DNA of 63,589 nt, counting the filler, from Sluysia triapertura (lineage: Eukaryota), in the NCBI GenBank assembly GCA_046118255.1. It is 4 parts of 4 records of this genome, joined end to end, with 100 filler letters (N's around TTAATTAATTAA, not from the genome) between each part and the next. Parts side by side here need not be neighbours in the genome. Positions count along the whole stretch, not along the records: positions 26,824 to 51,241 come from JBJNIA010191828.1; 3 more parts are not named here. One strand, 5' to 3'. The translations under genes were made by a program, and so were the position numbers. Positions 4,960 to 60,449 of the stretch are shown here, one piece after another (the first letter of the stretch is position 1; each line of letters begins with the position of its first letter). The notes beneath the pieces were generated by a model, which was not told the origin of the DNA, made no database searches, and was given only the letters and a program-made list of their open reading frames with translations.

Positions 4960-5460
4960 TTTTCATTATACTTAAACAGCCACAGATCTATCTATTACAT
5001 ATTTTTAAAACTAATCTATATCCACAATTTTACAACATTTTTTATCACGATTACACCTAACAGTACCAATTCACCAGAAACATTACTCGACAATCACAAC
5101 AATCCAACAACAAACACATTCGAAATAATTTATTCAATACTTTCGAACCCTTTATTTTACACTACACTTTAACAATTAATACTTAATATTTAATAATATT
5201 TATTCAATAGTTTATTTGCTTAAACCAAATCACAATCACAAACTTACAACACATAAACCACAATTACATCTAATACTATTTCACAACACCAATAAATCTA
5301 CTCGAAACATAAAATACCTACTTCACATCTTCGAATCAATTACAACATTTCAAACTCACTATTCATTTATGCATAATCATCAAAAACACAGTACAACACC
5401 AAAAACTTCAAATAAACAAACCACACAGAACATTGTACAATAACATCTTAAATGTGCCAA
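4960..5460. repeat. C/A-skewed dispersed repeat
   Basis: Shares blocks (tatatccacaat, actcgaca..cacattcgaaat, cttcgaatcaatt.caacattt) with 19400-19900. Confidence 0.65.
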
Positions 5461-12601: not shown

Positions 12602-12701
12602 NNNNNNNNNNNNNNNNNNNNNNNNNNNNNNNNNNNNNNNNNNNNTTAATTAATTAANNNNNNNNNNNNNNNNNNNNNNNNNNNNNNNNNNNNNNNNNNN
12701 N
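12602..12701. other. artificial contig linker
   Basis: N44-TTAATTAATTAA-N44, stop codons in all six frames. Confidence 0.98.
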
Positions 12702-19399: not shown

Positions 19400-19900
19400 C
19401 ATATTTATTTTATCTACATTCACTAAAACAGTTCATCTGCCAAAGTCAATTTATATCCACAATCTTATAACATATAAACCACATTGACATCCAATACCAT
19501 CAATTTACATCAACAGATTCATCAAAAATATTTCACTCGACATTCATAACAATCAAACTACAACCACATTCGAAATTATCCACCCGACACCTTCGAATCA
19601 ATTCCAACATTTTAAATTCATCATTTGTTATCATTTAATCCCTAACAGCACAAAAGACAATACCACTTAAAAATAGCAAGAGAATAAATCACATTATCAC
19701 TCTTCTCAATGTATCGTTAGGCCACAATATACCAATATTCAAATATTACTTTCAGTCAAAACATTAATCACCATCTAAAAAATTCATTAAAACGTTCTAC
19801 ATTTTACTGCATAGCATTAGAACTGCTATCATATCTTGAAACATCAATTATGTCAAACTAACATATATGTCAAACTAACTCAAACCAACCTTCACTTAAA
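19400..19900. repeat. C/A-skewed dispersed repeat
   Basis: homologous to 4960-5460. Confidence 0.65.
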
Positions 19901-20480: not shown

Positions 20481-20593
20481 CTGAAATAAAAATCAATAAT
20501 TGACTAAAAGCTTCCATTAATTATTAAAAATTTGTGATTGTTTAAAAAAAAGTATAAAAAATTTTCCATTTCGATAAATAAAAAAATAATCAC

Positions 20594-21800
20594 TTGTTTT
20601 ATATGTATAAAAAACAATTTGAGTTTAAACTTAAGGCGTTAACGAAAATATTTGATGAAATGATTTTTAGGAACACGATTGATGATATAATATTCGGTAA
20701 CAGATGTTCTTTTGCTTATACTGTAGGTGAAGCATATTTAAACAAATATAGGAGTGAAATACATGTACCTCGTGTAAAATTAACTCTTACTAAAATGGAG
20801 TCTATTAGTAATTTAGTGGGTGCAATATTGTTATGTTCTCAGGTATACGTAAGTCTACTTAGACAAATACAAAACGTTCTTAATGAAGTCAACGATCAAT
20901 TTATTCTCCAACAACATTATTATCTCCGAAAAGATTTTCTGAAACAAGCATCAAATGAAATTTGTCTTGTTATTAGCGATGAACCTAAATTCGTGCTTAT
21001 TCCGGCACTCTATCATAATAAAAAATCAAGTAATGACTACTTTAATCATTTAAAAAAATTAAATCAATTATGCCTTTGGGTTAACTCTGTTCAGAATTGG
21101 CGAGATAATATATTTGAAACATCAACTTAAGATACTGAAAAGAATTACAACATGCAATTGAAATGTCACGAATTAAATAAAGATTATATTTATATTAAAG
21201 GTCAATCATTTCAAAATACGCCATGCTACAGAATAATTAGTTCAGTATTCTGTACTAAAGCAATCCAATTTAATAGACAATCTTATCAGTTAAATTCAAG
21301 TCTAATACGTGAATTAAACAGAAAATTATACAATGGTTCAAAAAGATGCAATGATACAGCAAACCGTCATGAGAACAAAGATCATCGTGAAGTTAATTAT
21401 AAAGAATGATGTGCACTTACCCAGCTGATCTAAGTGGATTGTGCTTGAAATACAGGATTACTTGCAGCTATGCACACAACGTTTATCAATTAGAAGATGC
21501 AATATTGTTTGGCGTTTCGTGTTTGTCACAAAACACTAGATTGGAACAGTTTTTGCTTTCACTTAATGTCCAGTTGGCTGGTGATCGGATGGTAAAGAAG
21601 ATCGAGCAACCTTGTCAAAACAACGATGATATTACAAGCGAGGTAAACAATTACAAATTTTATAATAAAACTTATTTATACATGATTTTTATTTCAGATG
21701 TCAAGATCCTGAACATGGTCGGAGAAGCTATTTGGAAAAATTTAAAGTTCATAGAAATTAAAACTAATTTTACTTTCGTTATTTTTTGTTATTTAAAATT
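20594..21800 (+). pseudogene. CCCH zinc-finger cargo gene, copy 1
   Basis: Three abutting ORFs; C-x9-C-x6-C-x3-H at 21412-21477; candidate intron 21643-21697. Confidence 0.7.
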
Positions 21801-21949
21801 AGTCGTTAATAATTACCTAAGACCTATAAAAGTAATTAAATCTTTACAGTTGTCTTTATTACTATGTAAACTCCTAGCCTTTTTCCCTGAGAAAAAAGCA
21901 TGTTTTAAGTGGTCATATTGATAATTATCGTCTTCTACTGAATCGTAGC

Positions 21950-24468: not shown

Positions 24469-25040
24469 CTAATAAAATATATAAAATAAAAAAATATTAA
24501 TAAAATGATAGTAAAAAAATTAGTTGGCATAAATAAACATATTTGTTATTTCGAATGTGGTCTTATTTCCTCCAAATTCAAAATTTAATATTTTACCAAA
24601 AAAAATGAATAATGATTTCATAGATAAACAATGAATTCAATAATAGAGTTACAAACATTTCAAATTCAATTAGATTTAAAATGCTCACGTTTTCTAAGAT
24701 TGAACTGTGCAAAATTTTAAGGATTATCATATGAAAAATCACAACAAAATGTGTTTGGTGGCATAAATAAAAGAAATATGGTTTTAAATATACATATAGA
24801 AATCTACCTGTAAATAGTGTTACCATAAAACTAGAAGCACTCAAAGTTTACATACGTTTATTAATATGTTTCATCTAATAATATCTAATAATAAAAAATA
24901 CTAAGATCACATTATAGAACCGATTTAAAATATAGAAATCAAAAAGAGCATCAACTAAATTAAGAACTTTAAAATATGTTGAGAAGATAAAAGGAATATA
25001 AGAAAGCTTGTGTTGACATTTAAAGAATCTATGTATTTTC

Positions 25041-25139: not shown

Positions 25140-25370
25140 AATAATTATATTAACCAATAATTACTACTATCAATGGTGACACTATTGGTTTCTATGTATA
25201 AATTCTTGTCATCATTGATAGTGGCTTACTCATTTTAATTTTATTTATTTCTAATGCCATTATTGTTTGTTTTACAGTGTTTGGATGACTGCCTAATTAA
25301 AACTATTTACAACATCAATTATAAGCGTTTTGATTGGGCAGCCACTCAGATACAGAACAAAAATCAGCAA
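25140..25370. promoter_or_regulatory. hairpin/inverted CCAAT module
   Basis: ctatcaatggtgaca/tgtcatcattgatag and gactgcctaattaaaac/gttttgattgggcagcc (25287-25343). Confidence 0.5.
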
Positions 25371-25399
25371 TAATATGTAAAAATAATAAATTTTGTTAA

Positions 25400-26400
25400 A
25401 TGGTGTTCACAGAGAGATAGCCACAAGATTATTATTACGAATTTTTGATTATGATCAAAGATGGTAATTGCATGACTTATTAAAAGTAATTCTTATGATA
25501 TGCGGTGATTGTAGTCAACGAACGTTGCCTATTACAATAAATGATTTTCTAATAAATATGCATCAACCATTAAACTATTTAGATATTAGATTAAATTGAG
25601 AGAATTATCTAAAGAATAAGGAATTAATGTTTGCGTTTGTCATACAAGGAACACCTACGTGCAAGAAAAAGCAAGAAGTTCATCCTCTCTGTGAAATTGT
25701 TAAAGAAAAAAGAATAAAAACATATTTTATCGAAAGAAGTACTAATTCCCATGATAGTTTTAGTATCTTTAATGTGGAATCAGAAAAACTCCATGTTCCC
25801 GAACAAATGAATTTGCACCAAATGTTGCTAATCAAAAATTTATCATCAATAACTGACAACAATCTGGATATTTCTGTCTACATCATAAAGATATTAGAAG
25901 GGTATATCGAATTTATAGTAGACATCGATACTGTTAGAACGAACAATATAGTCAAGTTGTCAACACCATCCACAAGAATAATGAAATTCCAAACATATAA
26001 AGTTGTTCGAGCAAATAATTGACATTCTTGTTATTTTAAAACCGCTATGTGTCCTTATATCACAATACTGAATGCTAAATGTTCCAGATATGGTAAGCAA
26101 TGTATGTACGCACATAATGTTGCCGAATTAAAAAACAAATTCATTCGATCATCTTAGTAGAATTCACAACCTGATAAGTGAATTGACTTCAAACCAAATT
26201 CATCAAAAGAATGATCGTAATATTAAAGTAATTAACGTTTATTTACTTTATAAAACTATGATTTTCATTTCCTTTATTTACCTTATTTTCAATTATTTAG
26301 GAAACAAATAAAACAGATGGCAAGGTACACTCAGAAAAAAATAAACTTTGATAACTTAAATTCATACTTAAATGTTGTAAACTCTAGAGAAATAAAGTTT
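25400..26400 (+). pseudogene. CCCH zinc-finger cargo gene, copy 2
   Basis: Reading through stops gives YFKTAMCPYITILNAKCSRYGKQCMYAHNVAEL (finger at 26050-26115); candidate intron 26228-26300. Confidence 0.7.
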
Positions 26401-26646
26401 TTTTGTGTTGGTTTTTATATCGTATATATCTTGTATTTATTTTTATATAATACAAAAATGAAAATTTATCTAAAATTACGAAATATTCATAATTAGTATG
26501 TTTACTACCAAAATAAAAATATATAATTTCATTAACGTAATTATTAAATATTATTCGAAGTTAAGTTTAAATGGTTTAAACATATTTAATCATCTATTTT
26601 CACAACAACTACAAAAAATTATTATTTACTTTAGCATTAAGTACAG

Positions 26647-26723: not shown

Positions 26724-26823
26724 NNNNNNNNNNNNNNNNNNNNNNNNNNNNNNNNNNNNNNNNNNNNTTAATTAATTAANNNNNNNNNNNNNNNNNNNNN
26801 NNNNNNNNNNNNNNNNNNNNNNN
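26724..26823. other. artificial contig linker
   Basis: N44-TTAATTAATTAA-N44. Confidence 0.98.
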
Positions 26824-28910
26824 TATATTGCATATATTTTGAACCATTGATAATAGAAAAGCCTTCAATAATAGATTATATTTTTAAATGCAAACAATCG
26901 ATTCAATATACCACAGTAATGACGTTTACACTTTATAATAAGTCAGTAACAATAGATTTCATGGAGATTTTTAAGAAAAAAGATGTAAATAAAACAATAA
27001 GTACACTATTTCCTACTGAATTAAGTAAGCATCCAGATAAGAATATAAGTAAGAAAATAAGTAAGGATACAAAATATTTTTATAATTGCACTTTTAATCT
27101 TTACCATAATCTATATGTTATTCACTATTTATTACATAATTACTTGTAATAGGGTACCAAGTATGATCTTATCAATTACGTACGCGTCGCAGAGAATTTA
27201 CAAATCGAAATACTTGGATTTTTATAATTTCGACACAGAAGTTCAAATTAAGGTAACTAAAAATATTAAAGCATACAGTACATATGTATCAATCCAGCAA
27301 GACTTAATTTTAGTATATGTGAATTACATAGACATGTTTTACCAAATACAGAGTATCCAGTAACAATCTGCAAGGACTATTTACTTTCAGAAGATATACA
27401 TATAATAATATTTATCCAGCATCAGGCTAAAACTATTAAACAACTTCATTTTGCTATACAGGGAATCAAAGAACCAACTACAATTATAGATACTTTAAAA
27501 AAGGATCCGTCAATAGTTATTCTAGTAATCTCAGCTAAATTATTTATTATTGCATTAATAATAACCTTACTAATGATTATGATGTTCCTTATGAATAAAT
27601 GTAAGTATACTAATACTAATTGAAATAACGACAACGATAATCATCATTATTATAATGATGATTCAAAGATATTATGCTCTTCCTCCAGGACTGCCATCAC
27701 CAATATATGAACACAATACATTTAAGACTACCTACATATTATAGTGGATTCCAAATATCATCAGTATTATTATGTATTAGTTTAATAACAACCAAAGCCT
27801 CTTCCGAAGTAACCATAAAGAAATTAAGGAAACAAATTATTCTACAATAATATACAAATTACTATTCAAGCTAAGACCAACATAATAATAGTCGTAGCTA
27901 AGCAAATAGATGAGTAATTAGTTAGTCTATCTATTAATTGCTGTTTCAATAAGTTTTGTACTACTTCCTCAACACCAATTAAAGCTTCAATATACTGGGT
28001 AGTAGCTTGTGAAGATCCATTAAAATCCCAATTATACCAAGTCAAAATAACAATGGAATTAAATGATAGAGTAATACTATATTATTGGATTGAAACCTTG
28101 CCTTATGTATTCTACGATAAATTCAGTAAGCAATGGTTAAACTGTTCCATAACGGCATTAGCTAATGAAATCGACTTAATTAAGGTAGCAAATAATTCAA
28201 TTATAATAAGATATGAAACTGATAAAGAAACTATTACAGAATTAATTCCACCGAAACACACTACTATATTGAATTATTATCCTGAGTCGATCTTTTCAAC
28301 AATTTATGCATGGATTCTCAAAGCTAATGAATCATTAAAAGCGAATGACTGGTGAATCACAAAACCATACATTTTCATTATACCCATTGTTAAGGAAACT
28401 ACAATTATTAAACCAGATAAGAATATGCTAAGTAAATCAATACAAGTTAAGAAAACAATATCAATAGCTAGGAATATAACTAACATACCTAATAAAATTA
28501 ATAAAATCAGTTTAATTAATTCGAAAATCTCCAAACACAATGTTGACACTAATGAACTTAAAATCAACATTCATCTTTGCATTATCATATTCATGCTTTA
28601 TGCTTTTCTTGCAATTAATCTTGTGACTGAAGCTACAAAAATGTATAAAGGAATACCTCGTAGACTGACACATGCAATTAAAGTATAGGATTAAACAATA
28701 TATAGAAAAGTTACGTGTGATCGATGTTGATGGTTTTATTTCTGTCCAACCGGTCACCTAACTTTACAGAATATTCTTTAATATATTTCATATTTTTTAC
28801 CATGTACATAAATTAGGACCATAATGTAGTACTTTAATTAATTAATTAACTAACTAACTAACATTAAAATATTATTACTTTATTATATTTATATTTTTCT
28901 TTTTCAGTTA

Positions 28911-29366
28911 ATGTATTTTCACCGCTGCTCAATTTGTCAACGTTCCATTCATAAACACTTCATAAAAACATATCCTTGTTTTCACAAATTTCACTTCAAA
29001 TGTATTATTAATTTATTTCATTACACTATCACAGAATATATGAACTGCCCTTTGTGCAGAACATCAGTGAAAGAAATTTATACTTTTTATAAAGGAAAAC
29101 AGCAATTTACATATACATTAGAAAAGGTTCCATTATATCTTCACGATCAACACGTAGAAGTTCAGGAGGTAGTGATTAATCACCCTGAGCATTTTAAGAA
29201 AAATAATAAACATTCATTAGCGATACCGCCTCCAAATTTTCCTTCTGGGTTGTTAAAGTCCCAGAAGCATAATAGACGTCGTCAAATAAGACGTCTTTAC
29301 AAAAGAGCGGGTTTATACAATAAGGATAAAATAATTAATCCATTTATTAAGAAAAATCGTAGTTAA
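28911..29366 (+). CDS. RING-H2 finger protein with basic C-terminus (element accessory ORF)
   Basis: C-x2-C-x13-C-x-H-x2-H-x2-C-x14-C-x2-C; intact 151-aa ORF; splice acceptor at 28907; AATAAA near 29413. Confidence 0.8.
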   Translation: MYFHRCSICQRSIHKHFIKTYPCFHKFHFKCIINLFHYTITEYMNCPLCRTSVKEIYTFYKGKQQFTYTLEKVPLYLHDQHVEVQEVVINHPEHFKKNNKHSLAIPPPNFPSGLLKSQKHNRRRQIRRLYKRAGLYNKDKIINPFIKKNRS

Positions 29367-29515
29367 GGTTTTTATTTTTTTTACTCCAAAATCATATAAG
29401 GTACTATAATTAAATAAATAAAAATGTAAAATATTTAAAATTAAACTAACGTTTTATTTCATTTTTATGTGCTCTTCACTTCTTTTATGTATATTATTTT
29501 ATTTAGAACTGTAAC

Positions 29516-30660
29516 ATGAATGCACAGGCAAAAATTATAAATAATATTACATCTTTTTACAACAGTATAGACCGTTATTGTGGTCAGAACGACTCCCCTT
29601 TGTCTTTCCTTAAACCAAATCTAACACCTAACATACTTAAGAATGAAATGAATATACCATTTATCATTCATCTTTTCCGAGTGGATAAATTAGAAGCGCC
29701 TTTAGTGGTAAACCTCTTACAAGGTTACCCTGAAAATAACCAAGCAATATTAATCGCGGCAGCAAGATGAAATATTAAAGTAACAATGTATATAGACTTC
29801 AACCCCTTGTAAATAAGACTCCAAAGTTACTCATCGCATCAAATAATCAAAATGTGCATGATGCCACACCACAAAACTTATCACATCACAGAAACCATCA
29901 AGCCGAGAATACGAATTAAAAACTACTTGACAATTGATCACAAAATAAAGGAAAAAGATTTAGATAATGCGAAAGATATAAGTGATATTAGAAAATTCTG
30001 GGATCTTTCTACCCAGAACTCATAATTAAAACTTTAGCCATACTACACGGTTGGTTGACAGGTGTTGTAAATCTGACCTTCACCAACCTCGTATCTCAAA
30101 ACTCATTGAATTTAATTTTAATTTGCTATACACTGTTGTCCCGAAATCATTCACGTGTAAACAACACATGAAGGACTCCATTTCTATTTTCGATATCTTA
30201 ATAAACAAAGATGAGTCGTTCCTACCACAAATAATTAAAATTAATCATACAGATAGTTCTATCTCATCTCAAAATGATTCTCCTAAAAATAATAAAATCA
30301 TTCCTTTTTCTTCATCTTCTTTTTTACATTTACATGACAATACCTCTTGCTGCACAAATAACAATTGTAACATTTTCAATTTTTCAAAACCGATACCGCA
30401 TGCAGAACACATCACACGCCTAAAAAATCAATCCAGGAAAAGAAAGACATCAGAGTCGACACCAGATGCAGATGAACTGAAAGCAGTGGACTTCAACCTG
30501 ATATTCAAATCCAGTACACAACGTGGACTTGGATGACGATGACATCCAATCTCCGGAAATGGATATTAAGGATGCTGAAGATAATGACTACTATTTTTTG
30601 TCTTCACTACTATCAGACGATCAATTCTTCAGAATGGATGAGGTCATCGACCTTATATAA
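29516..30660 (+). pseudogene. fragmented accessory ORF with NLS-like and acidic C-terminus
   Basis: ORFs 29516-29770 and 30051-30536 plus frameshifted DLDDDDIQSPEMD..* tail; RKRK motif; acceptor at 29506. Confidence 0.5.
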
Positions 30661-32699
30661 AATTGGAGACCAATTTTCCCGGTCGGGGTAGCTCTTATTG
30701 TAATAAGAGTATATTGATATTCAGTGTATTGATATTTATAACAATGTGTAATATAACAGTCAGTGACTAAAGTGATTAAATATTAATAAATAATGGTTGT
30801 GAGAATATTGATATTTATAACAATGATTGATAACATTGTGATATTTATTATTCTGATTATAACTTTGTTTTAATTTGGAATTTTAATAAATTTTAATAAA
30901 ATGAATTTACATAAATTTTATTAGAATACTGTAACAATTTAATGTAAGAATTTTTATTTATTTAACTTTACCAATTAATTTTTATTTTATTTTATTTCTA
31001 AATCTAGCGTCACTAAATTATTAATTTTAAATTTTGTTTAAATTTTTAATTTTTACTTTGTTTTAGTCAGACTAAAACATGTATATAAAGGTCTACTCTT
31101 TTAACTTGAAACACACACAGAAAATTTTACAAGATTCTTAAGACAGAGTTTTACGAAAGTTTTTTTGGGTTTCAGCTAATATATAGATAATTCTACGGAA
31201 ATTTTTCAACTACCCATAAGTGACGTTAGTTTAATAATTTTAAGGCTGATATAATCTTTATATCTTCAGTAAAATATACTTAAAATCTGTATTTAGAATT
31301 TAGATCTTATAAAGATCCATGGCAAAATCATTTTTTAAAATAATAATCGCTGAGTATAACTAACTAACAATAGTTAGTTAAAGTAAATTTTTTAATTACT
31401 ATTATTGTCAATATTATTTGTCAATTTTATATTTTGTAATTAGATAATAAAAAGATTCTTTTGTTACGATTTTTTTAATTTACATATTTACAAAATCCAT
31501 TAAATTCATAATATTTGTAGCTTTCAAGAATCTAGAATTTAATTCTAGAAAGTAAATTTGCATTTAATGATTCCGTATAAGTGTAAAGATGGGTTCTCAC
31601 CTAACCTACGATGCAAATAAACCTGGAGAGAGTTCGCCTAACAGAAAACGACTTAAGTCTGAATGACGACCGATTTACTGTGCAAAAATCGAAATGAACA
31701 AGTGTCAAGATAAGGATCACCTAAGGAGAATTTTAGTCTATTTAGAATGTTGTAATTGATAATAAATTTAACTGATTTTGAGTTAGCCTTTTTAGACTTG
31801 TTAATGAAATATTAAATTAGCCGTTTACGGTCTAATTATTGAAAACTGTGATGTAAATTTTATAATATTAATCTAGTCTTGTTACGGTCTAGCGTTTGAC
31901 AATGATTTTAATAATAATTTCAAAACAAATTTTAAGTAAAGAAAGTTTTATTTACCACAAAGAATACTCAAAATTATAATTCAACACAAAATATTAGGAA
32001 GAATTTATATTACAGACAATGATTTTATTCAACTTAAATTCCGAAGAATTTAGTTTTATTATTTTAGACTGATTTTTACTTATCCGTTTACGGGATAAGC
32101 AAAGTTAAAAAATAGTTTAAGTAGAAATTTACTTCTCCCTTTTTACGGTGAGAAGGTCATACAACTTAATAAATATAAACTTGCCACTTTCATGGATATC
32201 TGGTGGAAGATTTTGAAGATTAGTTACCAACTGGCTATTAAAATAAAATTGTGTTAAATCTGCAAAAGTCAGTGACTTTTATACACAATTTTCTTTCAAC
32301 GGCCATGTTGTTTGTTATTTTGAAAAACTGGCACATATAATTAATTTACTTTAATTAAACAAAATTTATAAATATTACTTTCAATAAGGATTTTTAAATA
32401 TTAAGAAATAATGATTTTTAATGATTTTTAAATATTTCTTTTAATGATTTTTTAAATATATTTCTTTATAATAATAATTTTTTATATCATAATAAATAAT
32501 AAATTAAATGTAAAATAAATCATAATAAAAATCATAATAAAGTAAATAATAACTAAATAAATTTACACAATAAAGTAAATTATCAACAGTTTAGGCAGTT
32601 AACAATTGATTTCTCACATAAGTTTCACACACCCAAATCTCACAGATATAAATTTGTATAAATCTGTGATCGGAGAACTTTTACTTCCGCTATCCCATT

Positions 32700-38990: not shown

Positions 38991-39599
38991 TATTTTAAAA
39001 TATCATACCGAGTTATAAAATCGAACTTTTCAACGGATTCTGTTTAAATAGAATCCCAAATAAGTTTTTATTATTAATAATCTCGCTATTACATAAGTTA
39101 AGGAATTTTGGAGCTTACTATTTTTAAATTTTATAATATTATAACATACAAAAGCTAGTAACTTTACAACGTCTTAACCATTTATTTCATCACAAATCAT
39201 TAAATTTGTAAATTAAATTCAAATATAATAGTGATGTAAATTGAATTTCTCTTAACATCTCCAATTTCAATGTCACGTATTTTTCCTTCAACATTCAATT
39301 TTGTAACACAGATACCAAAGTTAACAACTCCAAGCTGAACTACTTTAACACTATACAATAGTTAAAAAACTTCTAAAGTAATTGAAACATTCATAGCATC
39401 AGAAATACAAGAAATGCACTTATTCAACATGTAAGTAACAAACGAGCAGTAACTGTAAAAAGACACGAACACTTTTCACATTTACAGATCTTAGATAAAA
39501 CAAAAGTATATTCAAGAACTATAAGAATTAAGTTTCAAAATAATTTTAATTTCAAAGAAAACGTTTTGAAAATTTTATACTCTTAGAGTATACTTACTA

Positions 39600-40520
39600 T
39601 TTGATACATTAAAATCTATCAATAATAATGATGTCTTTGATGACAATATATTAGAAAATATTTTTTTTCAAACATTTAGAATAAATCAGAAAATTCTACC
39701 TTATTCCGATTATCTTAGTCATGTAATTGTAGAAGAAATTGTAGATGATACCGTGTCAAGTAAAAAGGTAACGCAGTTCAAAACTATGATGAATCAAAGT
39801 TATATTAAAAGGAAAAGTGATGTTCCTAATTTATAAAGATGATCATAATAAAAGAGAGATCGTATAATTATTATTTACCGTGACATGTTACGAAAATGAT
39901 TCACCTTTTCAAGTATTTTGTTTCCGAACCTCTAAGTGACAGATCATCAACGATGGGATTCCAATTGACTGTGAGAAATTATTATCCGAATGATTTACAT
40001 AAATTCAATTATATTCATTCTAATCAAAATACAGGAGATACAGAACCACACATTAACCTATGTCATTATAAAATGAGCCGATGTCTTTTTGGTACCTCAA
40101 ATACTGGCGAATGTCTTATCTATAGCCGACGCTGTATTTATTTTCATGGTCTCACAGATGCACAACATACTTTCGGTGACGGTCAGATATTCAACTATAA
40201 TTCTGAACGAATTGCAAACCTGTTGACTACATTAAGATTAAAGCCATTCCTAACAAGTTCTTCAATATTTAGTATTTCAAATGATGAGCTTTAAACAAAT
40301 TAAAACATTATAAAAAATGAAAATTTATTTTTGAAGGTAAATTATTATATTTTAAAAATTTTATTAGACTTTCATGATTATATTTTTATTTATTTTTTAA
40401 GAATTCCAATTAACGTGTGGAAGGTGACATATACAAACATTGACCATCAATTATTAATATATAACTTTTATATTTTTAAATGTCCTTTTATTGAATTAGC
40501 TTTATAATAACAAATATATA
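39600..40520 (+). pseudogene. CCCH zinc-finger cargo gene, copy 3
   Basis: HYKMSRCLFGTSNTGECLIYSRRCIYFH (finger at 40082-40147); candidate intron 40337-40401; followed by a PPT-like motif at 40555-40598. Confidence 0.7.
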
Positions 40521-41750: not shown

Positions 41751-42429
41751 TAACCGAACTGCAAACTTAAATAAAAATTAGATATCAAAAACAAAAAATG
41801 TAATTTCTTTTATGTCATTTTATGTTATCTTCACTATTATTCATTTCCTTCTGCGAATAGTAGTCTTATTGATTTTGTTCTGAAGTCACTGCTTGATTTT
41901 TGTTCGTCGTGCAGGGAAGGACTGAATGGCACAATTGTGTACATTGGGACAGTGAGAATCTACCGGAGTTACAGTGTGAGCTGGAATCGGCAGCACTGGT
42001 TTAGTTGGCTAATTTTTCTTTGATGGAACTGTTAATGGTGGATACTAAAATGTTTCCTGTTGTTAACGAGTTCCCCCATTTACAAGAAGATGGAGTACGT
42101 GCGCACTATACCAAAGATATTAAACAATGGCTTGATAAAATATTTCCTGGAAGTTGGATTGAACGCCGAGGACCAATTTGACACCGCCTGATTTTTTTCT
42201 GTAAGTTCTAAAAAGCGCAGTTTATGCTAAAAAGCCTAGGACAATTGATCAACTAAAACAAAGTATTCAGCACGAATGGAGCCAAATTTCAGAGGAACCT
42301 TGTCAGAAAGTATATCGCAGTGTTGTCAAAAGAAGGTGGACATTTTAAATATTTGTAAATACTAAATATACATATTAAATTTGTCGTTTTTATTTAAGTT
42401 TGCGGTTCGGTTACTTTTGGGACACCTTG
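41751..42429 (+). mobile_element. Tc1/mariner (rosa/DD41D-like) deletion derivative, family A
   Basis: Transposase scraps VTV*AGI, FFFDGTVNG, QEDG..AH, WL...FPGSWIERRG, LTPPDFFL, VYAKKPRT; right TIR ...GGGACACCTTG|TA. Confidence 0.85.
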
Positions 42430-42554
42430 TATGTTTAGATATATTAATAATACATTAATAGGGACATTTCAGAAGAAAATATTTTCCTAAATTGAAATAA
42501 TTACATAATAAAATATTCCCCAAAAATGAGAAGGCTTGAAAATGTCTTACTTAC

Positions 42555-42814
42555 TCGTGAAACCTTTGAAACCGCTTGTTGATACAACTTTTTGAAAGCG
42601 AATAATATTCCAATATTTCGATACGCTTTCACGAAATTGTCTACATCTTCTAAATTCGATAAATCTTGACGTAGCTTTTGATAGTTCCAACAGCGAGTAC
42701 CGTTTATAGCATTCAAGGCGCTTTTATTTCTTGTGACAAACAAGCGCAAATCATGAACATATTTTATTATTTTTATAAATAGTTTCTCATTCATTAATTT
42801 CATTCCAAATGGAC
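42555..42814 (-). CDS. NCKAP1: exon of Nck-associated protein 1 (Nap1/Hem, WAVE complex)
   Basis: GPFGMKLMNEKL..LRLFV..VDNFVK..IGILFAFKKLYQQAV matches NCKAP1 GPYGMKFLSESL..VDSVLK..IGVILSFRSLAQEAL; TTCAG acceptor, GTAAGT donor. Confidence 0.85.
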
Positions 42815-43244
42815 CTGAAGTGATTTAAATAATCGATAATAATAATACATTTATAAATATTGTTGAAAATCATTCGAAAATAAAAACATTTTAAATAAAC
42901 TTGTATTACATTTACTTTACAATATGAAAATATCCACAAACATTCACTTTATAACTATCGAAATATCAAGAAGTACTAAGGAACATCTTCAAACACAAAT
43001 TAGTAAACAAACATAAAGAAAGAAGACAAAAGTCTATCACAATTAATTATGGATCAAAGACAGAAGCCAATAAAACAAGGAAAATTATCTAAAAAGTGAC
43101 AAATGAATAAAGTACATAATCAGAATTATAGTATATAGTGAAAAAAATGGCTATACAGACGTGTGTAAGATCCAAATTATCAAAGATATAACTTGATGAA
43201 AATTAAATAGTTAGTGGAAAATATCGTATATAAACATCAAAAAT

Positions 43245-43547
43245 TGTCCCAAATCAACCGAACCGCAAATTTAAATAAAAATTAGATATCAAAAACCACA
43301 AATGTAATTTCTTCTTTTATGTCATTTTATGTTATCTTCATTTCCTTTTGTTGCGTGATCTTACTGATTTTGTCCCGATGTCATTGCTCAAGTTTCAGAA
43401 GAAACTTGCCAGAAAGTATGTCTCAGTGTTGTCAAAAGATGTTGTGCTTATATAGAAGTTCAAGGTGGACATTTTGAACATTTGTAAATACTTAATATAA
43501 ACCTATTAAATTTGTCGTTTTTGATATCTAGTTTGCGGTTCGGTTAC
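43245..43547 (+). mobile_element. MITE, Tc1/mariner family A
   Basis: partial TIRs AACCGAACCGCAAA / TTTGCGGTTCGGTT; transposase C-terminus GGHFEHL*. Confidence 0.85.
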
Positions 43548-45416
43548 ATTGTTCAAAATTAGTTAAATTTAAGAATATTTTCACTTTTCAATGTGTTTTT
43601 TGGTTGCCAATAAAAGCAATAATAGAATTCAAAATCATGACAATAATTTACAAATGCTTATATTACGAAGTCATGGATATTTTTTAGAAATAATGCGAAA
43701 ATTGGAAACCAAGATGAATATTTCATTGAGGCATGATAATATATACAGAATCCACAGTGATAACAAACTAGGTAATATGTTGTATACCATTTATGTCTCA
43801 AAAATATACAACCACTTACAATAGAATGTCAAATTGCTGGAAGATTATAAAATATTTCAGAAAAAAGCAAAGTTCTTTTTGTTTCAGAAATATCATGGTG
43901 AATGATTTACCTTAAGCGGTTTTGAGTACTTTCGCGGTAGATATGAGCGCAATATAAAGTAATATATTATTATTAATAATAAAATATAAATTACATTAGA
44001 AATTAATTCTATTTAAATATGAAATAATAAACTATGTGTAGTTCAAAGATAATTATTTTAAAATAATCTAAAAAGTTTGTTTATGTAAACATTAATTCAC
44101 TTATTTTATTTATTTTAAAATAAACAATATCAATTATTTAGTTATTATTAAGTTAAAACAAATAAGTGATTTAATATCTGAATTTTAAATGAAGAGATTT
44201 TTATTTCAGATCTTTATTATTTATTCTATTATTCTTTACCATCTTTTCTTATAAAGCGATTGATTTTCTTTGAAGTGCTTTGAGAGATTTAGCACAATGT
44301 GAAATTTTCCTGTCATGCGTTATTTGTGTGTGGTAAAATGGCTGTGCTTGGAATTAAGGTGGTAGAAAAAATTTGAAATGATTTGATGTCTCATTTATAA
44401 TCGGACAATTTCAAGTGAAAAAAATTAGTATATAAATTAGTGTATTTAGAAAATCATATTATCATTTATTAGCAATTATTATGAATCACATGGATCAAAG
44501 ATATAACCAATACCAAAGGCCGAATGGAAAGATAAATTGAATCCGAAAAAGAAAATGTCGACTCATTAGAAATTATCATAATCAATGATGAAACAGTACC
44601 CAAATCACCGGAGAGTAAAATTGTAGTAAAACAATTAATGTTCAATTAATGATTTTTCCGAATTGTGTCTAAGTACACCGCTCTCTTTCAATTTGTAAAC
44701 TAGTACTGAAAATGATGCGGAGTTAATTTTATTGCGATTGTAACCAATAAGATTGTTCCGATTTTACTACATATTTGCTACCATGGCTAGAATCGTTCTA
44801 CCTTTTCTACAATGATTTCTACATAATATTTTTATCACAATCAAGGTTTTTCCATAGATTTTTTTGGTTAACAATAGATTCTTGTTTATGTTGTTTCTAT
44901 GGTGATTTGATTTATTCGATATTTTTCATTTTATTTAATTATTACTTTATTATTAATTTAATTTATTCTATAATAAATAATAATAATAATAATAAACAGT
45001 ATTTTAACCCAATATATGCACCAGTGCCTCCATTTCTGAAACATCTGTGTATTCATCGACTGGTAAACTGGAACTGTGATCTTTGTTTTGTGAAGGTAAT
45101 GGCAGAAAGCACGAATAAGTCGGACTAAAGATAATGTTGGGTTGTTCAAGTATAACATCTAAATACCACTGACTGTACAATTCAGATAATGTTTCATGAT
45201 TCTAAATTTAATTGACTAATTAAACAACCAATAAAATTAAACAAAGAGATCATTTGGTTTCTTTTAGTTTCTATTTCAATCGAAATCGATCATCACTATA
45301 AATTCGATATTAAAGTGTGCTTTCACAAAAAAACAGACACTGAAGATATCGATCTCTGTATGGTCAATTTTTACTTATTTTGTCTGTAATAAATCATCAA
45401 TTCCTTGAAATAAATA

Positions 45417-45780
45417 CAAGGTGTCCCAAAAGTAACCGAACCGCAAAAACAACAAATGTAATTTCTTCTTTTGTCATTTTATGTTATCTTCGCTACTATT
45501 CATTTCCTTCTGCGAATAGTAGTCTTTGGAATGACTTTTGTTGCCTGATCTTATTGATTTTGTTCAGCGTGCGCTTCTGGACCGCCATTCTTAAAAATGC
45601 AGCGAAGGAAACTTGCCAGAAAGTATGTCTCAGTGTTGTCAAAATATCTCATATTTGTATTGAAGTTCACGGTGAACATTTTGAACATTTGTAAATACTA
45701 AATATACCTTATTAAATTTGTCGTTTTCGATATCTAATTTTTGTTTAAGTTTGCGATTCGGTTACTTTTGGGACACCTTG
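45417..45780 (+). mobile_element. complete MITE, Tc1/mariner family A
   Basis: TA|CAAGGTGTCCCAAAAGTAACCGAA ... TTCGGTTACTTTTGGGACACCTTG|TA. Confidence 0.92.
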
Positions 45781-46339
45781 TAATATGGTAAGACCTCTAC
45801 ATAACAAATATATGCTATAATATTTATTTTTTGAAATTTTCTACTAATATTTTTTCTCCTGAAATAACTTTTGAGCTGATATTATTATGTCTGCTTTGGA
45901 AACATTCAAACCATCCCCATTTGAATCTTTAAAAGTATCCTTTCCAATTTCAATTCGTAGTGCCACAGTCTTGATCATGAAGTTTTTGTGTCGTTTCTTA
46001 ACAAACCACTCTCATACACTAAACTATCAATTTTTAAAGTGGAGAATAAACTCTTTTTGCACCTTTAAACTCATTCATTCACTTTATTTTTAAGAATTTT
46101 GTTTATGACCAATAATTTTCAACACTTAAGTATTCAAATTGCTTTTAATAATCATGTACTTATTCAGATTCTTTCTTTACTTCTTTTCAATTCCACTGCT
46201 ATATTTAGAATTTTGGGTGAATTTTCAAACTTATCTGCTATCATCAGTTAAAATGTTATATGAAACTATGGTATAAATAGCACGAAAGTAGACAGAATAT
46301 ATTATTTTTATTATTACTTAAACCTATAGTAATCAGAAC

Positions 46340-51241: not shown

Positions 51242-51341
51242 NNNNNNNNNNNNNNNNNNNNNNNNNNNNNNNNNNNNNNNNNNNNTTAATTAATTAANNN
51301 NNNNNNNNNNNNNNNNNNNNNNNNNNNNNNNNNNNNNNNNN
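51242..51341. other. artificial contig linker
   Basis: N44-TTAATTAATTAA-N44. Confidence 0.98.
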
Positions 51342-53499: not shown

Positions 53500-55850
53500 A
53501 TAAGCATATGTATTCAAATTTTAGTGTCCTTTATATAAATTGGCTTTTTTGACTATGTGTAAAAATTGGTTTTCAACAAGTGCCTCTACCCAAACAAAAA
53601 TGGTATATCTTATCCAAGTAATAGTATCGACCGTCTCTAACAACAAGATAGTAAAGAATGATAATATAGGTAAACTTATATGTTCAATTAGTACTGTCAT
53701 AAAATTTCGACAAAATCTTGACGGAATCATTTATGAGTGTTTACAAAGTCAACTGCTTTCACAGTTGATTCAAATATTTTATCATTACATTGTTTTGCAT
53801 TGTTTATAAATTCCTTTATGTTACCTGAATGTTACTCATTATCCAAATTGAATCCAATCAACAATAGGAACACGCATAATAGAATGTAGTTTACTGATAA
53901 ATAAAGATAGATGCAGTAAATTTCGAATGAATGTCGTATAATTAATCTTTTAGAAATGAACTCTGATTTGGAGGATCTATTATAAATATTGGTGATAATG
54001 ATTTTTTGTTATCTGCAACTGTTTTTAGCTACACTCATATTTTTAAATTTTTTGGTGGAATACTTCATCCAAAAATGATCTTTTTTGTTTTCTTTCAATC
54101 TTAACGCTGGCTAGAAACATTAAAATACTATGATGCTCAAACCTTGTCTCCGATGACTCTGAAACTTCACCGAATGATACCGTTGATACGGTGGATGGTT
54201 CAGAGTCTTAGACTTCATAAAATGGATTGACCGAAAATTGAACTCGGAACCTTTCGCTTCATATCTGTGAATTTAGATGCTTTGACCACTGAACGATCAG
54301 AGTCAATTATACTATCACTATTCTATGGTACTTTAGGCCTGTACCCTAACAAGAGGTAATTATGGATTTGATATTAATTAACTGGGTAGTTGCGTTTCAG
54401 ATTCGAAAAATCATGGAAATGAATTTGTAATTGGTATCTGCCTCGAAGTTAATTCATTTCAAATATGTGGGACAATTACTTGAGTTACTATCATCTATGA
54501 TCCCGGTGAAAGTTTTACAAGTCCATATTTACTATGTATTACTATATCATCCATCTTATCGAAAATATATAATCCTATTACTTCATGCATTTATTAGTAT
54601 AATTATACATTTATCCAGAATTGTTATAAAACATGTTAATATGCCGTTAATATTTACTGATGTACAATTAACGTCAACGTTTTGCTTTTAGCTTGTTCAT
54701 CAAAAAATTATAATTGTCGTTGCACCTGTATCTATAACAGCTCTTATCTCTCTGCCATTTAGATATAGATTTTGAAATACGTGATTTTTTAAATTCAATG
54801 ATAAACTCAATCATTATTAACGAATTAATGTATCCAAAATCGCTTATAGTGGTCTTTCGTCTTTGGTTTAACTTTTAAAATGGTTTTTGTGACTTCCTTA
54901 TTATATTACTTTTTTGGTGCTGCTTTTTATCTATTCAGAGTTAACTTTATTGGAACACTTAATGAATAAGTTAGCGAATCACTTCGTACATTCCTTTAAA
55001 CGGCTAACGTCCTGATTTTGATAATCCATCAATATTTTGTCACCAACTTAAAAATTACTCTTTTTAGCTTTCTTATCGTAAACATCCCTGTAAGACTCTT
55101 GTGAGTATTTTATATGTAAATCTACACGTCTCCGTGCATCCTTCAAATTTTCCTCATTGTCACGCAGTCTGGCGTTTTCAAATATTGATAAGTAGGAACC
55201 ACCCAATAAAAATAAGATGTTTTTGAGTGTCTATTGTATATCAAGTAAAATTGATTTTGTTTCTTGGACGAACTACATTTGAATAGGCGAATAAAAATTG
55301 TGCTATGTGTAAATCTCAGTCATTTTGTGGATTGTCAACGTATGAGTATACATGTTGGTTAGATTCCGATTAAACCATTCAACTAACCTGTCGCAAGTGG
55401 CATGTGAAGTGTAAAATCTTATGGCACTAGTAAAGTTTGGGCCTTGGCGTGTCACCTATAAATAATCTTATCTACAAGAATTTGTGAGACTCTTTCGGCC
55501 TTTTGATTTAGCATGGTATGTTTTGGCTATTTTGTAAAGTAATCGGCGAACACTAATATATACTTATTTCTACTAATTGTTTACGGTATTGTAACTAGGA
55601 TGTCAATTTCTGTGAACTCCATTCCTGAAAATAGTAAAAGCATGGGTCTTGGTGGTACTTTTATTTTTATTCCCAGGTTTTTTCTCCTGTAACAAATTCC
55701 TTGCACCACTTTTTAATGTCATCTTCCATATCTTCTCAGTAATACTTACTTTTTATTCTTGATAGTAATTTTCTGCATGATAAATGACCACCCAAATGTC
55801 CGTTATGAAACTGAATCAATATAGAATTAATAAATGATTGTGAAAGATTA
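53500..55850 (-). mobile_element. Gypsy relic: integrase (H2C2, core, GPY/F), then aspartic protease and a further decayed ORF
   Basis: FHNGHLGGHL..RIKSKYY*EDMEDDIKKWCKE; NKYILVFADYFTK; LVEWFNRNL; F*VGDKIL..PFKGMYEV; then LNGREIRAVIDTGATT (DTGA at 54721-54732). Confidence 0.85.
54206..54351 (-). mobile_element. solo tRNA-containing LTR with 4-bp TSD
   Basis: AGAG|T(C)TTAGAC...CCCTAACA|AGAG; the minus strand carries A-box-like and B-box-like sequence and TCAATCCATTTT. Confidence 0.8.
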
Positions 55851-55854
55851 TTCT

Positions 55855-58800
55855 TCACTGATCCTTTGTACTCTTGAATCTTAGCACTCCACCACAGTAC
55901 TACATAGATTTGACTACCACATCTTTATCTCCACTAAGGGTTACATTAAATGTTCACTCCTCGACTGTAACTTAAAGGGCCTTACAATTACGAACTCCTC
56001 TGATTGTAGTGAACTCCGTAGACACTTTATCCGGAAACACAAATTCACTACCCCTATAAATGAATTATAGATAAAGTGAACTTGTGGTGCAATCAAAACA
56101 TGTCTCATACTGAGCACACTAATGCATTAAACAGTGACATCCGCGGCGCAGGGAAAAGAATCACTGCCATGCTTTGTGTACCGGAGATTGTCGTCAAATC
56201 CTTTATTATATATCTTCTCCTAACATGGTTCAGAATTACACAAAAACTGAACCTTAATGATGCTCTTAGCCTTAAACGACATCAGCGTAAGAAACATAAA
56301 CTTACTTGTACCCAGCTCGTTATTAAATGTTCTCTTGCTTTTGACAACCTAACTTCACTTTCCCAACATCTCCTAATTCATACTCCCTCCGCTAACCTTA
56401 ACTTTGTCCCAACTGCCAAAGATCTGGATTCCACCCACCAGTCCGATTGACTATTTTTGGGCGCCGTCATGACTTTCTTTGATGCATTCATCTCTGATGC
56501 TTACTCAGTAGTGATTCATTTTATTGTTGCTAATTTTGCAATGTTCAATGATGGACAAGAATTTCTAAGCAATTTACCCCTTCCAAAATGAATAACTTGG
56601 CAACATTTAAAATCACATTGAAACATTGAAAATCACTGGATTCTTCTTAATTTTAGCAGAGATAATAATTTTTATTGCTTTGTTGATCCTTTGGAAATCT
56701 CTCCTCGTCACTTTGTGAATTTTTTAGAAATGTCATGACCACATATACTATATTACCAGTATATCCAACCAGACAATAGTTCTCTCATAAACGTATACTC
56801 TACCCAACTCAGGTTGGTCCTACTGATTGTGGTCTCTTTAAATGTAATACCGCCCTACAATACAAACGTAACCCTAATATACTTATGTTCTGCCAACCTG
56901 ATATCGACGCCACAAATGAAATAATATACAATATTGTAGCCCACTCTATTAAGCAACCATCCCTCTATTCAATCCCTTTGTAAAAGAATTCATACGTATA
57001 ACCTTTCTACTGATTATGCGTTTTCCAAATTTTGTGACCTCATACAAACTTTTCCCACCAAAATTCCCCAATATCCTATTCAAATTTAAAAAGAGTTCAC
57101 AGAAAACATGAAATTCGGAATCTTTCAGTCTTGATTTAGACAAAATATTTGAACATAATCAGACTAAAGCATTTCAATAGATTACAGGTACCGAGTCCCA
57201 TCCTATTACTCCTTCGGCGCTTGAAATCTGTCATTAATATGGAACTAGGATCGTTCTTCCTTTCGATCCATCTCAGATTGGAATGCTACCTTACTATATG
57301 ACGCATCAAGTAATGATTCAATAACTGAAACAGAAATCCAGATCACCCTAAAATCTTATAAAAATCCGCTCCCGGATCAAACAAAATTACTTTTAAAATG
57401 TTGATCCCTCGCCTACATTTCTTTTCTTTAATAAAATTATTTCCCTTTAAAAAATACCACGGGCCTGGAAAACCTTCACACCCTGCTTATGATTAAACCG
57501 AATAAATTTCACCTTGCGCACAAAGTCTCATCCTGGCGACCTATTGCTATTGTAGATATCGTATCTTTGCTAAAGTATTAAACGATCGCCTTCTTTCGTT
57601 ATTACATAGTGGTATCAGCTCTCAGTAGGCCGCGTTGTTACGTTCCGATGGATGCACTGAGCATAATTTCTTACTACACTCCCTTCAGGAAATTATTGCG
57701 TCTCTCAATCACCGTAAAACTAATAAAAATGAGCTCCATGTAATATTTCTTGACTTAGCTAATGCCTTTGGCTCTATCCACCACCAACTTATCTGGCACA
57801 CTCTATCACTCATGGTCTAGACCAACATAACCTAAACCTTATCAAAGACCTATATGAGGGTAGCACTACGAATTACAAATGTAACAAACTTGTAATTGAT
57901 CCAGTTCCAATAAAATGTGGAGTTGAACAGGATTGTCCTATATCCACGACCCTTTTCTGTCTAGCCATTGATTATCTCTTTCATAGATTTAATTCTGGTT
58001 CCAGAAAATCATTTCTTCCTTATCTTGCTTACGCAGATGATATTACATTAATTGATACTTCACATAATTACCTCCAGCGAACACTTACATCCATAGTATA
58101 ACATGCGAAATCTCATCTCTCGCCCCAACAAATGTTTATACTCTCACAATATTCCAAGTAATACAAACCTTTCCCTTCTCATCAATAATACATCAGTCAT
58201 GAACTTGAAAGATGAATAGACATGATTTAAGTGGGTGTTCCCTTTGGTGAACTAAAGAAACATAATTTGATTGACCTTCTCAATGAAAACCCAACTCTGG
58301 CCCGTAAAATGCAGAACTCTATTTTAATTTGCAGAAACCAATTCATCGTGTTTCGCAAATTTATTCACTCGCGCCTTCCATTTCATTTGCGCAATATAGA
58401 TGTAAACACTCAAACCTTATCTAGACCTCATGCAACGCAATCTAAGAGCCTTCCGCAAACAATTGGATATGCTGAGAAAATGCATCATATACTTAAGGGT
58501 TTCCTTGGTCTGAAAAACTTTCCATTTAACAATTCCTTTTTCTTTACCCATAAAAATCATGGCGGCTTCAGCTTAATTTCCTCTTAAGATGACTATATCT
58601 GCCAGAATATAGTCTGTGCCTTCCGACTTTTACATAGTCGAACAACCCTAATTCGCACCCTACCTTTACAAGAAATACCCCGAGTCGCTTCTGACAGACT
58701 GAATGAAGTTGATAATATGTCTGATGTCCTTTTGTGGCTAAATGGTGTTAAAGCCAATAAAATCTCAAGACTTCAGATATGGTGGACCAAGATTCGCCAA

Positions 58801-59850
58801 TCAATCCTTAACCTGTTCCGCAAATATAAAATCAGAGTCAGATTCTCTTATTGTGAGGAACATATAACTGAATGTTAAATGTGACATACTTGGAGATTTC
58901 GAAGTCACTTTTAATCGGTTTCATAATGATAAAGTGGGGAAATATCTGTATGAGCTGATTAACCTTCCCAACACCAATTCCTATAAATCCCGCAAAGTTC
59001 AAGATTGCTTTGTAGAATATTTCATGAAAAGTCCTCTATATGGTCGTCCTTTTCCGTACAGTTAAGAAACCGGTGTTGGATTTTCATGACTAAAGCTAGG
59101 AATAATGTTCCGAAACTTAATTTTTGCCCTAAAAACATTCGACTTAATCTTCCTCTTGGTGTGTCTTCGAACGAGTAACTCTTGCCCATGTATTATGTCT
59201 TTGCCCACATACCATCACTGGCCATACAGTAAGACAATAAAATTGTAGAATGTTTACTTAGTAAACTAAAACAAATTGCCTTCTCGGTGAAAAAAGCTAC
59301 TCAAAACCCCTCAGTTGGAGATTATAGGCGACCTGATCTTCAAGCGCAAGGTACTAATTCTTCACAACTGTTTCTCATGGACATCAAATACCCTATTGAT
59401 GATTATGAAAACTTTCAAGCGGTCTGAACATTTAATATTACCAATTATCTGACCTGAGGCAAAAACTCCAAGACCAGCTCAAATGTCCTGTCTCCCTAGA
59501 CACATTTGGAGTTGGAACTTTTGGTTCTTGGGATGCAGAAAATGGTCCTGTCCTTAAAAAGTTAGGTTTCCATAAAGCAGATATTACTGGTTTTGCACTC
59601 CAGTGTATCAAGCTATCCCCAGAATCTTTCTTTAATATCTAAAGACCATTCTCTTCAATATCCCACTTAACTATTAATTCTCGTACCTTTCGGTTTCCTT
59701 TTTTGTGTGGTGAATAATAGTGTTTATTTCATTTTTCCCCCTACAATATATTAATGAAATCCTTTAAATTTTTCAATACGACAACTCCTCTTTATGAATG
59801 TTTATAAATCTTCTCATATTTCCTTTTATGTAAATAAATAAATAAATAAT
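55855..59850 (+). mobile_element. NeSL/R2-group (RLE) non-LTR retrotransposon with C2H2 fingers and Ulp1-like protease; degenerate, near full length
   Basis: C2H2 fingers (LRRHFIRKH, LKRHQRKKH, LSQHLLIH); NHWILL..VDPL..TQVGPTDCG; RT SAPG, WRPIAI, FLDLANAFGS, LAYADD (~58030); TLAHVLC.C, RPDL, DIKYP, VGTFGSW; A-rich (TAAA)n tail. Confidence 0.92.
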
Positions 59851-59976: not shown

Positions 59977-60035
59977 CGTCTCGGGTTAGATCCCCGGTCA
60001 GTCAACTTTCATAAAGTCTAACATTTGGTGAGCCC
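59977..60035 (+). mobile_element. tRNA-containing LTR 3' end plus primer-binding site
   Basis: CGGGTTAGATCCCCGGTCAGTC..AAGTCTAACA (ends 60023), TT, TGGTGAGCCC. Confidence 0.7.
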
Positions 60036-60279: not shown

Positions 60280-60449
60280 TGTTAGACTTTATAAAATGGA
60301 TTGACCGGGAATCGAACCAGAACATCACGCTGAAAAGCTGTGTAGTTCGATGCTCTACTCACTGAGTTCTCAGCGCCGGTTAACAATTTTATTTTATTAT
60401 AGTCATTATTATTATCATAATTTTAGGCATTTTAGGCTTTACCCTAACA
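60280..60449 (-). mobile_element. tRNA-containing LTR copy
   Basis: TGTTAGAC...TACCCTAACA; minus strand AACTCAGTGAGTAGAGC..GGTTCGATTCCCGGTCAATCCATTTT. Confidence 0.8.

Follow-up and report, generated by a model that had tools for sequence, protein, structure and literature searches.

The late unit of adenoviruses combines leader-to-body splicing with internal poly(A) sites. Foamy viruses offer a precedent for accessory mRNAs that are spliced from an internal promoter (PMC13220597), and the retrotransposon Cer1 offers one for a spliced mRNA of 2.4 kb (PMC3315495). In the operons of flatworms, a median of 99 bp lies between cistrons and 300 nt has served as the operon threshold (PMC12582326). 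Where a cis donor and a spliced leader (SL) both exist, the cis donor out-competes the SL (PMC4558846). The ubiquitin and apoptosis cargo of giant invertebrate elements is known, and the expression of separate downstream ORFs is rarely described. Among these elements, Burro has left decayed fragments in Dugesia japonica (PMC6431247, PMC13465017). A literature search, in which subscription journals lay mostly outside the coverage, returned no paper on an invertebrate element in which several cargo ORFs are each led by an acceptor, although the primary Burro papers may hold such a case.

The window analyzed here, meaning the whole stretch of DNA of 63,589 nt with its filler, carries what reads as a real, well-formed pair of donor-less acceptors before cargo genes that an unclassified repeat family carries. 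The row of acceptors and ATGs gives the exact positions at which a cis leader and SL trans-splicing can be told apart. If SL trans-splicing is true, a selfish element uses host operon machinery; if the cis leader is true, an unclassified invertebrate element is expressed in the style of a complex virus. The locus also contains a member of a RING-H2 family with an RRRQ/NPFxK tail, which is unnamed and recurs in five other records.

The window consists of four AT-rich pieces with N linkers between them (12602-12701, 26724-26823, and 51242-51341; 100 nt each, composed of 44 N, TTAATTAATTAA, and 44 N), and adjacency in the genome is not implied. Pfam matches revealed UROD and NCKAP1 exons and an EGF-type match in an LRP-like exon, the LRP name being given by eye. 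These predicted host exons indicate an animal genome. The UROD exon argues against a nematode, a group that lacks haem synthesis, and a host-taxon search that used the NCKAP1 exon gave no match. The Rfam scan of the window gave no credible match and no SL RNA match. The third piece starts at 26824, and the element is cut off there, so that its 5' part is missing. In the visible part of the element, no LTR, gag, PR-RT-RH-IN, leader, or donor was found, the 5' side lying beyond the piece edge. Pfam likewise gave no pPolB, integrase, capsid, or ATPase in this part, and no terminal repeat was seen there, neither end of the element being visible. In the Pfam scans of the window ORFs, an RT was detected solely in an unrelated non-LTR fragment at 57763.

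Table 1 Coordinates of the coding regions, spacers, and splice-site-like features of the element, counted along the window.
Feature	Position	Strand	Details
Region U, decayed, apparently intron-free coding	26826..28688	+	stops and frameshifts break the frame
Membrane-like hydrophobic segments of U (three)	27076-27132, 27513-27569, 28569-28625	+	
Spacer 1	28689..28910	+	222 nt; 22% GC; ATTAAA at 28690 and 28863
Three overlapping CTAAC branch-point-like motifs	28847..28862	+	last A at -46 from the G of acceptor 1
Acceptor 1, TTTTTCTTTTTCAG	28894..28907	+	AG-free for 78 nt upstream
RING-H2 (C3H2C3) ORF	28911..29366	+	intact; 151 aa; Pfam zf-RING_2, E 2.2e-6
Spacer 2	29367..29515	+	149 nt; 16% GC; AATAAA at 29413 and 29417; CTAAC at 29446
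Acceptor 2, TTTTATTTAG	29497..29506	+	AG-free for 106 nt upstream; branch-point-like A at -57
ORF-B	29516..30660	+	84 open codons, then likely decayed continuation; ~380 codons in all
Third acceptor-ATG pair, weak	31046..31141	+	T-rich tract; AG 31065-31066; ATG 31079; offset 12

The sequence-only reading that preceded this analysis had placed two orphan acceptors, with their AGs at 28906-28907 and 29505-29506, 3 nt before the RING ATG (28911) and 9 nt before the next ATG (29516), and these positions proved to be exact. The AATAAA and the U-rich spacer that it had described between the two genes were also recovered, the hexamer at both 29413 and 29417 and the spacer with 70 T in 149 nt. The form of a U2-type 3' splice site is complete at both sites (branch-point motif, pyrimidine tract, YAG, and AG-free zone), and neither acceptor-to-ATG interval contains a stop codon. 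The acceptor of the host LRP-like exon (24469, minus strand) displays the same build, with CTAAT at -51. A GTRAG donor was sought in spacers 1 and 2 and was absent from both. Both sites look like real acceptors by these signals, with branch points that the earlier reading had left unmentioned.

The acceptor match at both sites exceeds chance, under criteria that are post hoc. When both strands of the window were scanned, acceptor 1 was the sole YAG with a 10/10 pyrimidine tract, and the AG-free runs of 78 and 106 nt ranked in the top 4.7% and 2.0% of plus-strand AGs, respectively. The combined criteria of tract, branch point, and AG-free zone were passed by 8 of the 5,257 AGs in the window, and of those eight, just these two sites lie within 12 nt of an ATG. 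Examined from the side of the ORFs, an acceptor-like site within 30 nt upstream was present in 2 of the 25 ATG-started ORFs of at least 80 aa in the window, namely the RING ORF and ORF-B. A looser acceptor test was passed by 26 AGs, including the host exon acceptor at 24469 (-); it misses other likely host acceptors and is therefore insensitive. Dinucleotide shuffling of the whole spacers, scored for the tract only, produced a site in 197 of 20,000 trials for spacer 1 and 137 of 20,000 for spacer 2, and the inclusion of a branch point gave 23/20,000 and 28/20,000. The loosest shuffle test, limited to the last 100 nt, gave 1,165/20,000 (spacer 1) and 304/20,000 (spacer 2). Depending on strictness, shuffled spacers yielded an acceptor-like site in 0.1-6% of trials; the shuffle and count figures flatter the result because the criteria were fixed after the sites were known.

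Other copies of the region were visible only in a single DNA run (X1), in the form of short contigs. This run matches the stretch (47% of words), is not recorded as RNA, behaves as genomic DNA, and possibly derives from the window's own species or sample. When positions 26830-31500 were compared with this run, 3,660 contigs aligned: 277 at 99% identity or above, 617 at 95-99%, 1,372 at 90-95%, and 1,394 below 90% (2,766 below 95% in all). The summed depth was 1,760-23,600 over U and the RING ORF, 170-970 over most of ORF-B, 70-100 at 30574-30885, and 310-1,890 past 30886, and seven of the eight contigs with a listed depth had values of 10-25. The summed depth, which is not a copy number, and the contig pattern therefore point to many diverged copies, and the approximately tenfold drop in depth from RING to ORF-B suggests that many copies may lack ORF-B or diverge in it. 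As in a dispersed family, the ORFs are intron-free and many contigs align over a range of identities. The region is a multi-copy family, partly decayed and likely a mobile element. None of the three joints listed in the run lies at an acceptor (6 of the 136 loose ends were among those listed). A further CTAACTTTACAG in spacer 1 was rejected as a candidate, its G at 28769 differing in 1,129 of a depth of 1,153.

The RING protein is a predicted E3 ligase, and its basic tail carries the RRRQ and NPFxK motifs common to the family. A library at 50% identity contained 51 RING matches, four of them full-length (P0001, P0003, P0005, and P0034), and a profile search added P0053 to the full-length relatives. 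These five relatives are single records, none of them named, on contigs of 714-2,374 nt. All eight C3H2C3 zinc ligands are invariant in five of five aligned RING proteins, and in the alignment RRRQ and NxFxK are also common to the full-length relatives. The position of the start Met is identical in the same 5/5 proteins, which argues against the RING ORF being an internal exon. The RING domain matched Arkadia, AMFR, and RNF165 in the PDB, and the Atlas clusters nearest to it by features (0.90-0.92) consisted mostly of RING proteins from viruses. When viral and metagenome contigs were scanned for relatives, 10 and 11 loci were returned with a RING domain match only, two further scans returned no loci, and the RING protein by itself gave no match in a word-based search.

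Among the 40 of 69 differences listed for run X1, 33 lie inside the RING ORF. Synonymous changes make up 17 of these 33 (one of them stop-to-stop), compared with an expectation of 19-27% (p 2e-5 to 3e-3). Third codon positions account for 17 of the 32 variable RING ORF sites among the same 40 of 69. One difference was scored as a stop in a codon that has a second variable site too. The comparison shows that the RING ORF is a constrained gene under purifying selection. No difference among the 40 of 69 listed falls in the segment of acceptor 2 and its ATG (29498-29521, depth 250).

The best plus-strand frame of region U has 17 stops in 621 codons, compared with 59 and 79 in the other plus frames and 37-74 on the minus strand. 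No Pfam match was obtained for U, and one weak PHROG match of unknown function was found (E 0.036). A single-sequence fold of 27270-27620 was confident solely at the C-terminal helix, with pLDDT below 50 for residues 17-74. U is possibly envelope-like. By eye, its ectodomains look FN3-like. On the other side of the RING ORF, the continuation of ORF-B has just 2 stops over 169 codons, where 12.2 would be expected, and none over 168, where 10.8 would be, and the protein has a basic RKRK stretch followed by an acidic C-terminal end. ORF-B had no match in Pfam or PHROG, and its first 84 aa had no usable match in the Atlas. It is likely a decayed gene.

The third acceptor-ATG pair is followed by 20 open codons in this copy and has no CTRAY branch point, and the X1 repeat family still covers its stretch. 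The gene row may continue past this pair, given the features at 31357-31760. Another TAACTAACTAAC repeat, resembling the one in spacer 1, is located at 31357-31368 (+), and a GC-richer, decayed ORF-like stretch extends from an ATG at 31590 (31590-31760, +), with no acceptor adjoining. Right after the last stop of ORF-B stand three adjacent short hairpins (30659-30710; -11.3 kcal/mol with DNA parameters, unshuffled), followed by a 43-nt direct repeat in two copies (30711 and 30790). The hairpins were rejected as the end of the element, as the family covers sequence beyond them.

Other elements were observed elsewhere in the window. Decayed ORFs with an UNK-like CCCH finger (Pfam PF25427) occur at 20582-21921, 25285-26160, and 39400-40294 (+), with E values of 2.6e-5, 2.8e-8, and 0.005, respectively. 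The first two align at the fingers alone, and no homology was found between the three fragments and the RING-bearing element. All three regions are likely pieces of further elements that bear cargo. In another assembly piece, the second CCCH ORF is followed by an AT-rich spacer, an AG in a T-rich setting (26299-26300), and an ATG at 26317 that a CAG immediately precedes (26161-26496, +), a layout resembling ORF-spacer-acceptor-ORF. Two diverged C/A-rich blocks (5069-5279 and 19427-19597; 74-78% identity), the second upstream of the first CCCH ORF, are possibly the leader or LTR of a large element. The non-LTR retrotransposon at 56064-59640 (+) is decayed and encodes a C2H2 finger together with an RT (Pfam RVT_1, E 2.4e-7); from its layout we take it to be R2/NeSL-like. 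Four short stretches (1-67, 54208-54292, 59978-60024, and 60280-60365) are repeats related to one another that share a tRNA T-arm-like motif, probably a SINE family. Around the NCKAP1 exon, nested small-element copies with inverted ends (41752-45782) appear mariner/MITE-like by eye.

The sequence-only reading had pointed out that the offsets of both acceptors are multiples of 3, as an AUG supplied by the SL would favor, and had allowed that two such cases could be chance (1 in 9). The argument from frame should be dropped. In the window, 9 of 21 strict pairs are in frame, which is about chance, and for S. mansoni an in-frame SL AUG is reported in 28% of the transcripts that are trans-spliced (PMC9851317, quoting Cheng 2006). 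The frame thus lends support to none of the models and does not tell them apart. An acceptor-like site at 25277, in another decayed fragment, has an offset of 7 and is a counterexample to the multiple-of-3 rule. The offset of 12 in the third pair and a Gln in P0053 may be taken as small hints: at the protein level, the start of this relative reads F-I-Q-M, with the Gln near the family Met as in the window, which reads F-L-F-Q-L-M before RING, the Q being the CAG of acceptor 1. The wider proposal of that reading, expression of the downstream cargo by SL trans-splicing or subgenomic splicing, is supported in part: it loses its frame component, while the acceptor form, the lack of GTRAG, the element-like multi-copy family, and the constrained RING ORF are in keeping with it.

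That splicing uses these sites is an inference, as are the donor and the element class. When the three models that involve splicing are taken together, the sites very probably act as acceptors giving each downstream gene its own mRNA. Our tentative preference, held at somewhat less than an even chance, is that alternative cis-splicing joined them to one leader exon, shared and upstream, and so provided every gene with a separate mRNA. This exon would be located at the main promoter beyond the piece edge, or at an internal promoter, and would be spliced alternatively to acceptor 1 or acceptor 2, so that the first ATG would differ between the spliced forms. The RING protein and ORF-B would then be made separately, each starting at its own Met, whatever the frame of the AG. 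A cis leader is favored because it makes no assumption about the host and would suit an env-bearing retroelement as well as a DNA-virus-like element, and because a cis donor out-competes the SL when present. Acceptor quality beyond that of shuffles, the similar host acceptor, the lack of a GTRAG donor in the spacers, and the variability of three GT candidates in spacer 2 are consistent with it, and the genes are co-oriented without sign of introns; against it stand the lack of a visible leader, donor, LTR, RT, or integrase, the operon-like spacing, the lack of a joint at acceptor 2 among the three listed, and the drop in depth from RING to ORF-B. Fusion of RING or ORF-B to donors in U was rejected, since the donor-like sites examined by eye (27025-27061, 27601, and 28126) are in phase 1 of the best U frame and phase 0 is needed at both acceptors. 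The operon-like spacing would suit SL trans-splicing, a somewhat unlikely model in which the element is an operon or has short outrons and the host SL is added at each orphan acceptor; the upstream AATAAA would end the previous cistron, and the proteins would gain 2 or 4 residues in frame if the SL brought an AUG of the flatworm type. The co-oriented genes are no more than 300 nt apart (222 and 149 nt) with donor-less acceptors, the AG-to-ATG intervals of 3 and 9 nt have no stop between and no local GTRAG donor, and AATAAA stands ~90 nt before acceptor 2, like the operon spacing of S. mansoni (PMC12582326). The Gln against the family Met in P0053, like the CAG of the window, and the addition of SL1 to Cer1 retrotransposon RNA (PMC3315495) point in the same direction. 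However, the model requires an SL-using host, and Rfam gave no SL match in the window; the frame is uninformative on both counts given above; AATAAA occurs once per 280 nt on the plus strand of the window anyway, and spacer 1 was scanned and has none; and internal cleavage would be expected to cut the genomic RNA if the element copies through RNA. It is unlikely that an element or endogenous virus has its own SL-resolved operon in which acceptor phase is kept for the leader AUG. If this were true, a string of cargo (membrane protein, RING-H2 ligase, transactivator-like ORF-B, and more) would be released by host SL machinery.

Each gene might have its own promoter in the spacer and a short, ordinary 5'UTR intron ending at the acceptor, which we consider quite improbable. 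TATA-like words are found in both spacers, a GTAAAA at 29426 would give an 81-nt intron with the branch point inside, and an intron-like segment of ~55 nt at 21643-21697 shows similar shortness. The first three GT candidates of spacer 2 are, however, variable among the X1 copies, with differences in 3,184 of a depth of 3,357 at 29368, 1,512 of 2,240 at 29403, and 831 of 2,000 (29 contigs) at the G of the 29426 donor, copies that may not carry ORF-B. From the TATA-like words near 29394 and 29404, transcription would be expected to begin no earlier than the donor, and the donors of spacer 1 are weak (GTACAT and GTAGTA). It is distinctly improbable that the sites have no splicing role, as U-rich 3'-end or spacer sequence that by chance ends in AG before an ATG. 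The spacers are 78-84% AT, the criteria are post hoc, and the third case has neither a CTRAY motif nor an open frame, all of which would fit such an origin; against it, composition-keeping shuffles rarely yield such a site, the only two of the 25 ORFs to have one are neighbors, and CTAAC and long AG-free runs precede both sites.

Retroviral accessory ORFs usually abut or overlap, unlike the ORFs described here, which are separated by long AT-rich spacers. The order of a membrane-protein gene followed by small accessory ORFs from spliced RNAs is nevertheless like that of foamy virus tas/bet (PMC13220597), and the basic stretch and acidic tail of ORF-B resemble a transactivator, the likeness being one of resemblance alone. 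Complex retroviruses differ in having gag, pol, and LTR, which are not seen here, and no sequence similarity to them is shown. The small stand-alone RING proteins of large DNA viruses and Polinton-like viruses are the nearest by Atlas cluster, but the Atlas matches and the viral loci (L001-L010) match the RING domain alone, and the visible part of the element has no capsid, pPolB, ATPase, or terminal repeat. Co-oriented genes less than 300 nt apart, with an acceptor before the downstream ATG, are shared with the SL operons of flatworms and nematodes and with Cer1 (PMC12582326, PMC5832876, PMC3315495). Those operons consist of host genes and Cer1 is a single site, both resting on SL reads, whereas the present case is read from sequence alone. 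The Burro giant Ty3/gypsy elements of planarians are alike in being very large and high-copy, with accessory ORFs and ubiquitin/apoptosis cargo that includes RING (PMC6431247, PMC13465017). By their description, Burro elements carry cargo and env mostly in one polyprotein of 4,900-5,100 aa or in an upstream ORF, and their RING goes with BIR, whereas here a stand-alone RING-H2 and further ORFs come after a membrane-protein region. If the host is a planarian, Burro would be the nearest idea (PMC6431247, PMC13465017, PMC8532177, PMC13238120).
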